Source: an uncultured Clostridia bacterium
GTDB taxonomy: Bacteria; Bacillota; Clostridia; TANB77; CAG-508
Direction of reading: 5' to 3'
Length of the DNA: 64,000 nucleotides
Assembly (NCBI GenBank): GCA_934154805.1
Contig: CAKPGM010000003.1
Span: 37,323 to 101,322 of the forward strand
Shown here: positions 41,300 to 42,775 of the stretch, one piece after another
How the letters are laid out: each line of letters starts with the position of its first letter
Numbering within the stretch: the first letter of the stretch is position 1
The notes under the pieces: generated by a model
The model's input: only the letters and a program-made list of their open reading frames with translations
The model's database searches: none
Told to the model about the DNA's origin: nothing
Made by a program: the position numbers and the translations under genes

Positions 41300-42775
41300 A
41301 TGGAAAAAATGAAAAACAAAAAAGGAATAACATTAATAGCACTAGTCGTAACAATAGTTATCATTCTGATATTAGCGGGTATAACAGTGGGAATGGTAAC
41401 AAGCGATAATGGAATACTGAAAGAAACTAAAAATGCTAAAGAACAAGCAGAGATAGACAACGAGAAAAGCATAGTGGAAAGAGCAAGAATGTTAACAATA
41501 ATGAGAGATAAAAGTGGAAAAGTGACTCTAGCAGTATTTGAACCGGCATTAAAAAGTGAGGCAGGAACAAATCCGACAGAGGTAAGTGATGCTGGTGATG
41601 TAATAGAAATTTTATTTACTGATACAGACAGATATTATGAAGTAGATAAAGATGGAAATGTAAGCGAACCGAAAAAAGTAGTAACGGATGAAAATGCAGG
41701 AGACATAACTAAAGGTGGAAAATGTGATGGAAGTGAAGAAAAACCATATGAGATAAATTGTATAGAAGATTTATGTGATTTCTCTAATATGGTAAATATT
41801 AATTTCAATTCGAATAAATATGTTGTATTGAAGGGAGACTTGAATTTTAATTCTAGATTTTCATATGCGAATGGAAATATAAAAACAGATGGAAAAATAA
41901 AGTCGTGTAATAGCATAGATGAACTAAAGACAGCATTAACAACTGGAGAAGGATTTTACAATATAAGTCAAGATCAAGAAAATGGTCTAAGAGGAGTAGT
42001 ATTTGATGGACAATATCATACAATTTCAAATTTATATGAAAATTATGAAGATAGCAAAGCAGGTGGATTATTTGCATATTGTTCATGGGGAAGCAAGATA
42101 CTGAATTTAACAGTGACAGGAAATATAAAAAGTAAAGCAAAAACGGGAGGAATTGCAGGAGTTGTAAGACAAGTAGAACTTATAAATTGTGTAAATAAGT
42201 GCAATATACTAACAAATGGTAGTTCTACAGGTGGAATAGCAGGAAATACATATAATGAAAGTAGCAAATTCATAAATTGTATAAACTATGGAGACGTGAG
42301 TGGACATGGAATACTTGGATGGGATTGGGCAAACACTTCAAAATTTTATAACTGCATAAACGCAGGAGATGCTAGTGCAAGTGCAACAATATCAAGCATA
42401 TATGAAAATTCAGAAATAGAGATGATTAATATACTTAATTATGGAAAGACAAATACTTTTTTCTCTTGTAGAACTGAAAGTGGAGTTGCTAAAACAATCA
42501 ATTGTTATTCAGTGAAGGGACGTATAGAAAGCAAAGTAAAATCTGATATAAAAGATGCTACGCAATATTCGTGGTATTCACAAATAGAAGAAAAGGATGA
42601 AGAAAATGTAAAATCTCAGGATTTTATAGATAATATGAATAATTTTATAACAAACGATGCAAAAGCACAGAGCATAGACACAACTGGATGGGCAAAATGG
42701 ATAATTGGAACAAATGGATATCCTACTTTAGATTTCCAAACGACTTGGAATGGAACTGAATGGGAAAATTTATAG
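41300..42775 (+). CDS. Pilin-like class-III signal peptide surface protein with GLUG-type repeats (mosaic paralog of 888-2441)
   Basis: RBS aaaggag. The first ~155 aa are about 85% identical to the 888 gene, as far as PYEINCIEDL, then diverge. GGIAG/NCxN repeats follow. Confidence 0.85.
   Translation: MEKMKNKKGITLIALVVTIVIILILAGITVGMVTSDNGILKETKNAKEQAEIDNEKSIVERARMLTIMRDKSGKVTLAVFEPALKSEAGTNPTEVSDAGDVIEILFTDTDRYYEVDKDGNVSEPKKVVTDENAGDITKGGKCDGSEEKPYEINCIEDLCDFSNMVNINFNSNKYVVLKGDLNFNSRFSYANGNIKTDGKIKSCNSIDELKTALTTGEGFYNISQDQENGLRGVVFDGQYHTISNLYENYEDSKAGGLFAYCSWGSKILNLTVTGNIKSKAKTGGIAGVVRQVELINCVNKCNILTNGSSTGGIAGNTYNESSKFINCINYGDVSGHGILGWDWANTSKFYNCINAGDASASATISSIYENSEIEMINILNYGKTNTFFSCRTESGVAKTINCYSVKGRIESKVKSDIKDATQYSWYSQIEEKDEENVKSQDFIDNMNNFITNDAKAQSIDTTGWAKWIIGTNGYPTLDFQTTWNGTEWENL

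Follow-up and report, generated by a model that had tools for sequence, protein, structure and literature searches.

Why do two genes some 40 kb apart on one chromosome share a closely similar first third and then diverge abruptly? The question is raised by a stretch of 64,000 nucleotides (nt), referred to here as the window, from an uncultured Clostridia bacterium of the GTDB lineage CAG-508 (assembly GCA_934154805.1, contig CAKPGM010000003.1, positions 37,323 to 101,322), in which g888 (positions 888–2441 of the window, forward strand) and g41300 (41300–42775, forward strand) encode pilin-like modular proteins of 517 and 491 amino acids (aa). The window is a chromosomal segment with a G+C content of 29% and contains the housekeeping genes lepA, dnaG, rpoD, pflB, nusB, xseA, fhs, nrdD and ligA, a gene for a SleB-type spore hydrolase, and five pilin-like genes (g888, g23361, g41300, g43144 and g56102), four of which have an invertible promoter cassette (inverton) upstream. 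The RpoD encoded there clusters at 90% identity with proteins listed as 'Clostridium sp.' in gut metagenome bins. The answer we favour, with a probability of about 0.7, is that the step in identity marks where a conserved carrier module gives way to a variable cargo module in a large, phase-variable, segment-swapping family of pilin-like surface proteins of uncultured gut Clostridia.

A sequence-only reading of the window had proposed that g888 and g41300 are about 85% identical over their first ~155 codons, up to the residues PYEINCIEDL, and then diverge sharply, and this was confirmed. By blastn, positions 892–1379 of g888 and 41311–41797 of g41300 (both forward strand) are 84.7% identical over 489 nt with nothing comparable downstream, where identity drops to approximately 45–55%, and the encoded proteins are 88% identical across 151 codons ending in PYEINCIEDL. 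Divergence along the pair is not uniform: identity per 60-nt window on the global alignment lies between 0.73 and 0.92 until approximately positions 1345/41763 and between 0.2 and 0.6 thereafter, the latter being the background for A+T-rich DNA of this kind. Maximum chi-square analysis of the codon alignment placed the breakpoint after 1390/41799, with 15.8% mismatches to the left and 45.9% to the right, a contrast reached in none of 2000 permutations (p ≤ 0.0005). The conserved amino-terminal (N) module of g41300, delimited by blastn, sliding window, maximum chi-square and the family profile, comprises the leader, a hydrophobic helix, a pilin-like head and a linker, and reaches into the cargo domain as far as its first element (PYEINCIEDL). 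Past this module the two proteins retain homology at approximately 30–40% aa identity. The earlier claim that both keep GLUG-type repeats stands for g888, which matches Pfam family PF07581 at E 4.7e-8, while in g41300, which has no such match at E ≤ 0.01 yet aligns with g888 repeat for repeat, the repeats are visible only by alignment and in the structure model.

A step of this kind could be produced by faulty assembly or binning, with the shared segment being a collapsed or mis-joined repeat, and contigs of other assemblies (L014, L016 and L018) do break at the invertons upstream of such genes. However, several human-gut assemblies contain contigs near-identical to the window, and both loci, flanks included, were recovered from independent metagenome assemblies (L012 at 99.5% identity and L013 at 100%). 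Faulty assembly of the window thus does not account for the pattern, and the two copies, because they differ at 15% of sites, are not collapsed; the likelihood of an artefactual origin is close to negligible.

The sharpness of the step also invites the proposal that the shared 5′ third arose by gene conversion acting recently and directly between these two loci. In line with this, g888 and g41300 are mutually best or near-best matches within positions 1159–1250 (identity 0.90–0.93), and the invertons upstream of the two genes, 40 kb apart, have the same central trinucleotide, TAT. Against it, the shared module contains 72 mismatches in 489 nt, the proportion of synonymous differences (pS) is 0.47, the synonymous divergence (dS) is 0.73 and no identical run exceeds 36 nt, and copies in another genome match each window gene equally well or better over most of the module. 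Recent conversion is therefore highly improbable for this pair, which, at a ratio of non-synonymous to synonymous divergence (dN/dS) of 0.09, shows strong protein-level constraint on an old shared module and not a fresh conversion tract.

Constraint might then be the whole explanation: after an old duplication, the N module would have been frozen by purifying selection while the cargo evolved rapidly under diversifying selection, with no recombination. The low dN/dS of the N module agrees with this, as does the coincidence of the step with a structural boundary. The step between the two window genes is mainly non-synonymous (dN 0.064–0.07 in the N module versus 0.59 in the carboxy-terminal (C) part), and the synonymous divergence of the N module is not significantly below that of the C part (37/80 versus 50/88, p = 0.22, NG86 counts), so that the window pair taken alone can be explained by differential constraint, a point that weighs against the favoured reading. 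The same codon is used at identical amino acids in 0.72 of cases in the N module (0.58 expected from codon usage) and in 0.59 of cases in the C part (0.55 expected). At the level of the family, selection without recombination is already contradicted by the comparisons described below, and as a sole explanation it is very unlikely.

Across 24 distinct family genes, nucleotide identity is 0.81–0.93 up to aa 158 (third codon positions 0.72–0.82), falls to 0.69 at aa 159 (0.55), lies at about 0.45–0.55 in the core (0.40–0.55) and rises to 0.87 in the last 25 codons (0.83). With a conserved 5′ block followed by a variable core across these genes, the step is therefore a family-wide boundary, situated a few residues inside the cargo domain, and not a breakpoint private to the window pair; the difference at third positions between the 5′ block and the core is not accounted for by differential selection. 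Conserved 5′ and 3′ blocks around a variable core form a layout through which homologous recombination could exchange cassettes. Members of the family are numerous: a profile of the N module matches 1029 clusters at 50% identity (E ≤ 1e-30), typically 350–650 aa in length. A search for N-module homologs had returned only short or truncated proteins of at most 277 aa, giving the appearance of a stand-alone small pilin, a reading that was overturned by a search with the C part and by the exhaustive profile search. Two recurrent truncated alleles of 187 aa (P0010 and P0012, with 26 and 32 member sequences) stop soon after the N module (...GTGIKLDKRTSSDDNYQ) and resemble frameshifts at the start of the cargo domain, and one locus has an early stop after 38 aa (L009, 427–540).

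Homologs, drawn mostly from metagenome assemblies or metagenome-assembled genomes (MAGs), combine the two modules in ways that descent with differential selection cannot explain. For example, P0124 and P0125 share with g41300 a C part that is 88–94% identical in amino acids (88–92% for P0125 as encoded on contig L016) with a dS of 0.18–0.45, while their N modules are only 76–77% identical in nucleotides with a dS of 1.1–1.4; this heterogeneity along the gene is significant for both (p = 5.7e-7 and 1.8e-4; for P0124, 46/80 in the N module versus 17/86 in segment C1, Fisher's exact test). P0126 has a C part 88% identical to that of g41300 at the nucleotide level joined to a different pilin module (63% nt and 47% aa identity), with similarity resuming at approximately aa 128. 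Conversely, P0128, from a 499-kb contig of a related organism at a locus syntenic with the window, is g41300-like to approximately aa 300, with an N module (78% nt, 74% aa) similar in its distance to those of P0124 and P0125, and then continues into the C-terminal half of another family type (30% aa identity). The N module of g41300 differs from its paralog g888 at 56 of 360 nt versus 81–86 of 360 from P0124, P0125 and P0128, which carry its cargo (p = 0.007–0.02). In addition, the way in which informative sites group seven N-module copies from one MAG changes from block to block along the module, and the pairwise homoplasy index (PHI) test on N modules gave a p-value of about 0.0005, a signal that differential selection likewise leaves without account.

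Repeats can be mis-joined in metagenome assemblies and MAGs, which could inflate the PHI signal and weighs against reading these mosaics at face value. This concern is mitigated by P0124 and P0125 representing 50 and 61 member sequences and by the 499-kb contig that carries P0128. The comparisons as a whole clearly indicate that segmental exchange shapes the family, and the earlier suggestion of gene conversion or segmental exchange between loci is thus upheld for the family and not for the window pair as a recent event. Orthology could not be assigned for the seven copies from the single MAG (L001–L007, CAVFFR01 contigs), because their flanks have no match to the window, the sole exception being an Rpn gene in L004. 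This MAG is labelled 'Bacteroidaceae bacterium', a label or bin that may be wrong because its Rpn is 95.7% identical in protein sequence to the Rpn of the Clostridium-like window.

The pilE/pilS system of Neisseria, in which silent cassettes without promoters donate segments to a single expression locus, offers a natural comparison. As in that system, pilin-like genes with a conserved N-terminal and a variable C-terminal part show mosaic patterns expected of gene conversion, namely the PHI signal, heterogeneous dS and chimeric homologs. Unlike in that system, there is no division into one expression site and silent cassettes: all copies are full-length genes, each with its own start codon and ribosome-binding site and most with their own switch, and exchange is deduced here from comparison, not seen as a programmed event.

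The proteins themselves are modular. An AlphaFold2 model of g41300 based on 35 homologs (predicted local distance difference test score, pLDDT, 88.6; predicted template-modelling score, pTM, 0.85) contains a long N-terminal helix, a short helix with a three-stranded sheet (to ~aa 122), a linker (aa 123–149) and a right-handed beta-helix (aa 150–491) closed by a helical and beta C-terminal cap, and the predicted secondary structure of the N module is likewise helical at residues 9–34, 39–69 and 77–88 and then forms three strands. Structural neighbours of the full model are all weak (best E 5.5e-3) and are beta-helix or solenoid proteins, including pentapeptide-repeat proteins, the pneumococcal IgA1 protease (7jgj, probability 0.99), phage depolymerases and the Lactobacillus reuteri SRRP adhesin. 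The cargo differs among the window genes, being a GLUG beta-helix in g888 and g41300, PKD and DUF285 repeats in g23361 and g56102, and an FGE-sulfatase-like domain in g43144. Provided that the pilin module is genuine, an N-terminal module, a linker and a non-pilus domain constitute the modular-pilin architecture in the sense of Raynaud et al. 2021.

Whether the N module is indeed a pilin depends on evidence of two kinds. In its favour, the open reading frames (ORFs) of all five window genes encode, at their start, a basic leader that runs into G-I-T-(L/I)-I-A-L-V-V-T-I-V and then a hydrophobic stretch; the sequence MEKMKNKK-G-ITLIALVVTIVIILILAGI, a short basic leader ending in glycine and then hydrophobic residues, is a borderline class III signal peptide; the Pfam N-methylation motif PF07963 (cut-off 21.2 bits) scores 21.3 bits in g41300 and 19.0 bits in g888; and a phmmer search against the PDB matched the N-terminal helix of a geopilin at E 9e-4. 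The modelled long helix followed by a small sheet points the same way. Several observations weigh against a pilin identity, which is not secure. Mature position 5 is alanine in 5/5 window genes in place of the glutamate (Glu5) of type IV pilins, and many relatives have alanine for glycine at position −1 of the predicted prepilin cleavage site (L025, L026, L027, L041, L047 and others; ...KKAITLIALVV). Modelled alone, the N module had no significant structural neighbour in a Foldseek search of the PDB (best pilin 8qqj at E = 1), and neither it nor the full g41300 model had a fold match at E ≤ 0.001. NCBIfam pilin models scored far below their cut-offs with none above, and no type IV pilus machinery or prepilin peptidase was found within the 64-kb window.

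These points would all be accommodated if the proteins were not pilins at all but signal-anchored or otherwise exported beta-helix adhesins or enzymes with a prepilin-like N terminus, which is possible though unlikely given the fit of G/A-ITLIALVVTIV to the N-methylation motif and the matches to pilin helices. The absence of Glu5 argues against a major pilin and not against a pilin, and tip complexes capped by pilins without Glu5 are known (PMC10191384). As the N module alone lacks a significant neighbour, a pilin fold is plausible but unproven. If the proteins are pilins, their counterparts would be the modular pilins, which have the same architecture and are likely to be exposed at the tip (PMC8179133), and it may be speculated by analogy that they serve as alternative tip subunits of a type IV filament.

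Expression of most of these genes appears to be governed by invertible promoters. At four loci, arms of 28–29 nt that are 93% complementary lie 126–129 nt apart, defining elements of ~185 bp. Inverton 1 (639–823; arms 639–666 and 796–823) lies upstream of g888, with a candidate promoter TTGCTT-N17-TATATA running from 709 to 681, away from the gene (OFF); inverton 2 (41100–41283; arms 41100–41128 and 41255–41283) lies upstream of g41300, with a candidate promoter from 41170 to 41142 (OFF); inverton 3 (42891–43072) lies upstream of g43144, with a candidate promoter at 43003–43031 directed towards the gene (ON); and inverton 4 (55859–56040; central trinucleotide AGT) lies upstream of g56102, with a candidate promoter from 55927 to 55899 (OFF). 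A 26-nt arm motif, TTAATTAAATATATAATTTAATTAAA, occurs seven times in the window (641–666, 796–821, 41102–41127, 41256–41281, 42893–42918, 43046–43071 and 55859–55884) against an expectation of zero. Six of these copies pair up as three complete inverted repeats in front of g888, g41300 and g43144, and the seventh is the left arm of the g56102 pair, whose right arm is visible in the sequence. The cassettes of g888 and g41300 had been described as near-identical, which holds for the inverted-repeat arms, as these match almost exactly, and not for the elements overall, which are 77% identical over 199 nt (in 90-nt windows, 0.83–0.95 in the arm regions and 0.57–0.72 in the interior).

Both orientations were found among consensus assemblies from nature, which bears out the earlier recognition of these cassettes as invertons and indicates that they do invert. 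The inner segment of inverton 3 in another assembly (L012, 99.5% identical over 13.5 kb) is the exact reverse complement of that in the window; for inverton 1 the evidence is partial, as contig L014 of another assembly begins inside the element in the flipped orientation; and the 4.4-kb contig L016, which carries the g41300 homolog P0125, begins inside its inverton in the ON orientation, opposite to the window. Contigs of other assemblies often end inside or beside invertons (L014 1–60, L016 1–100 and L018 1–70), as mixed orientations in the sampled population would give. A pattern scan of metagenome contigs identified 75 inverton loci, nearly all of which adjoin a pilin-like gene where sequence is available. 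The pattern was not found in viral contigs, and a phage origin of the invertons was rejected on that ground.

Alignment of 74 unique invertons revealed a single strongly conserved interior block (≥90%), AGTATTGATTTTTTCTTACAGCTATGCTATAAATAG, comprising a −35 element TTGATT, an N17 spacer and TGnTATAAA adjoining one arm, which is probably the promoter. On this basis, the promoter would face away from the gene in 65 invertons and towards it in seven (7 of 72 gene-assigned invertons, ~10%, in consensus assemblies). The arms are 10-5-10 palindromes in their own right (TTAATTAAAT and ATTTAATTAA around five bases), and the central trinucleotide varies by locus (TAT, TAC, AGT, AAT, TGT or TGC) but is identical in both arms in 78 of 80 cases (window plus L002–L009 and L019–L093), a layout that resembles the core site of a recombinase with its crossover region. 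Three points weigh against this account of the switch. A stricter consensus promoter scan misses the conserved block owing to the final A of its −10 hexamer; the ON and OFF labels derive from the DNA sequence; and a recombinase was found neither by Pfam among the 48 large ORFs of the window that were scanned nor, as serine or tyrosine recombinase motifs, by a simple two-motif regular expression in 683 kb of sequence (window plus fetched loci). The recombinase is presumably encoded elsewhere.

Other features lie close to these elements. Between inverton 2 and a divergent AMP-binding gene there is a terminator-like hairpin on the reverse strand (41035–41071; a 15-pair stem followed by a T run) that could stop transcripts of an OFF-oriented promoter and so insulate the AMP-binding gene. 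The promoter scan also detected a sigma-70-like site, TTGATT-17-TATAAT (10/12 matches), at 43086–43114, outside inverton 3, between its right arm and the start of g43144. A TTTTATAATAA-like string occurs 3′ of the right arm upstream of g888.

The reading that joins these results, of a conserved carrier with exchangeable cargo, would work as follows. Each protein consists of a prepilin-like leader and hydrophobic helix (KGITLIALVV..., with alanine for Glu5), a small alpha/beta head and a conserved linker ending in PYEINCIEDL, after which a GLUG-type right-handed beta-helix, variable in repeat number and sequence, leads to a conserved tail, W.KW..G.NGYPTF. Most copies would have their own ~185-bp invertible promoter, which a trans-acting site-specific recombinase would flip ON or OFF. 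Homology arms could be provided by the conserved 5′ block (inverton and N module), by motifs shared among the repeats and by the conserved 3′ end, and through these arms homologous recombination or gene conversion would swap N modules and whole or partial cargo modules between paralogs and strains. The N module would be kept uniform by purifying selection (dN/dS 0.09), presumably for compatibility with a single assembly machinery, together with repeated homogenisation, and the window pair would record an old exchange plus constraint.

As possible initiators of such exchange, Rpn-like nucleases of the PD-(D/E)XK type were considered, either starting or catalysing it, for instance through breaks made close to the invertons, or mobilising a unit made up of an Rpn 3′ end, an inverton and the 5′ end of a gene. 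The window contains both the Rpn gene and the Rpn remnant that had been pointed out earlier: an intact Rpn (YhgA-like, Transposase_31) gene at 9554–10540 (forward strand; PF04754, E 7e-28) and, directly upstream of inverton 4, an Rpn-like/PDDEXK_2 3′-end remnant at 55524–55772 (forward strand; by tblastn, 27 aa at 85% identity to the window Rpn and 99 aa at 41% to the PDDEXK_2 protein of L015). In 11 of 70 oriented invertons, an Rpn/PDDEXK_2 gene or 3′ remnant ends 20–106 nt upstream of the distal arm, in all 11 on the same strand as the pilin-like gene, and the window remnant occupies this position. Rpn-like/PDDEXK_2 genes or remnants near invertons or family genes include those at L061 6743–7612, L078 9554–10423, L091 1403–2320, L015 11847–12758 and L004 2435–3406, among others; intact copies immediately follow family genes in L004 (the copy 95.7% identical to the window Rpn), L015 (where the neighbouring gene matches PF12784) and L052. 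Rpn proteins of E. coli raise RecA-independent recombination (PMC5350276). However, adjacency is suggestive and proves nothing: several of the 11 cases are probably one locus in different samples, such a gene accompanies only 5 of the 56 invertons whose flank reaches 400 nt or more, Rpn genes occur in multiple copies and also encode toxic antiphage nucleases with internal antitoxins (PMC10400941), and the intact window copy is 7 kb from the nearest family gene. A role for Rpn in the exchange is accordingly judged improbable.

The g43144 subfamily has a further peculiarity. In g43144 (43144–44512, forward strand; pilin-like with an FGE-sulfatase-like C module), the leader ORF (43144–43227, frame 0) encodes MPKETLKK...RNKK behind a good ribosome-binding site, and the mature part begins at 43229 in frame +1, offset from the leader by one base. 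At the junction AAG-CGG (43225–43230), followed by AAT, the +1 frame reads GGA-ATA-ACG (G-I-T). This break is kept in approximately 30 of 35 metagenomic homologs (L019–L093), in which the last leader codon before CGG is AAA, AAG or AGG, and one 43144-type subfamily is in frame; in the L015 homolog the leader occupies 13108–13275 and the mature part 13265–14485. Upstream of the junction, the pilin frame has stop codons in every case and, in the examples inspected, no start codon, and the differences just 3′ of the junction between the window and L015, a single pair compared by eye, are synonymous in the +1 frame. The CGG codon occurs in none of the 7127 housekeeping codons of the window and in none of the five family genes. 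Homopolymer slippage was rejected as the sole cause of the break, as variants with interrupted A runs (AGAAAAC, AAAAAGC and AGAAGGC) keep it.

These sequences are most economically read as a candidate for programmed +1 frameshifting, with the unused codon placed exactly at the glycine of prepilin cleavage. A similar arrangement has been described in glass-sponge mitochondria, where +1 frameshifting occurs at rare CGG_A or UGG_A codons next to GGA (PMC5009743). In both, an extra base directly 5′ of GGA gives frame 0 a CGG that is rare or unused, and translation would resume at GGA in +1; here, unlike in the mitochondria, the break lies in a bacterial chromosomal gene family, at the prepilin cleavage glycine, and is known from sequence. 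If confirmed, it would be a rare bacterial instance of +1 recoding at an unused sense codon. Combining all of the above, one could imagine variation of a type IV filament tip in three layers, with independent promoter inversions choosing one or a few members at a time from a repertoire of interchangeable Glu5-less tip pilins with beta-helix, LRR or FGE-like cargo, reshuffling of cargo and carrier modules possibly started by Rpn-induced breaks, and a programmed +1 frameshift gating the 43144-type subfamily, although this fuller scheme is improbable.

The components of the favoured reading, a switchable family of modular pilin-like proteins, are each of a known kind. Modular type IV pilins such as PilB and PilC of Streptococcus sanguinis, CofB and ComZ (PMC8179133, PMC9934059) similarly present a bulky, variable module (vWA, lectin or beta-solenoid, with a proposed tip location) on a small N-terminal pilin module via a short linker. 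The present genes differ in forming many paralogs per genome (at least seven in one MAG) scattered outside pilus operons, in their individual invertible promoters, in module exchange and in the absence of Glu5, and their pilin fold and incorporation into a pilus are putative. Independent switching of each gene by its own invertible promoter is known from the mpl (P35) lipoproteins of Mycoplasma penetrans, which, as far as the summary of Horino et al. 2003 in PMC2268961 conveys, are likewise a multigene surface family over several loci with an adjacent invertible promoter per gene and a recombinase acting on many sites. As depicted in that summary, the mpl products are lipoproteins and not pilin-like beta-helix proteins, the organism and repeat sequence differ, and candidate recombinases lie near the mpl genes, in contrast to the loci described here.

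In the gut, invertible promoters are known from Bacteroides capsule loci with Mpi, from the RecV switches of C. difficile and from fimS of E. coli (PMC10403206, PMC11892184, PMC5903667), where a promoter in front of genes for surface structures is likewise bounded by short inverted repeats, many loci can share one recombinase and populations are mixed. The invertons of the present family are distinguished from these by their repeat sequence, by the 10-5-10 palindromic arms with a locus-specific central trinucleotide and by their target, a pilin-like family in uncultured Clostridia. Our literature search turned up no account of this pilin-like family, nor of clostridial invertons that precede pilin genes; modular pilins, per-gene invertible promoters, pilin gene conversion and gut invertons are all known, and their combination in a pilin-like family of gut Clostridia was not found described.

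The adhesion structures of abundant uncultured gut Clostridia are almost unknown, and a large family (1029 clusters, several copies per genome) that is switchable and recombining has the profile expected of a main interface with the host, diet glycans, phages or immunity. Should the pilin reading hold, the idea of the modular pilin would extend from single genes to a phase-variable, self-shuffling repertoire and would offer a tangible case in which to study how the tip of a type IV filament is changed. The sequence conserved in the inverted repeats may also serve as a search key for such switches in metagenomes and, by co-occurrence, for their recombinase.

The second pair of paralogs in the window behaves differently from g888 and g41300. 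The genes g23361 (23361–25778, forward strand) and g56102 (56102–59005, forward strand; pilin-like with a weak PKD match and DUF285 repeats, Pfam E 3e-22) are 48% identical over 804 aligned residues with no sharp step, and have approximately 13 repeats of 27 aa and 17 repeats of 28 aa, respectively, so that the previous estimates of ~55% identity and ~20 versus ~30 repeats must be revised. The only pilin-like gene of the window without an inverton is g23361, upstream of which (22494–23340) lie two ORFs without a Pfam match, one of 181 aa and one of ~96 aa, the latter with an N-terminal hydrophobic segment.

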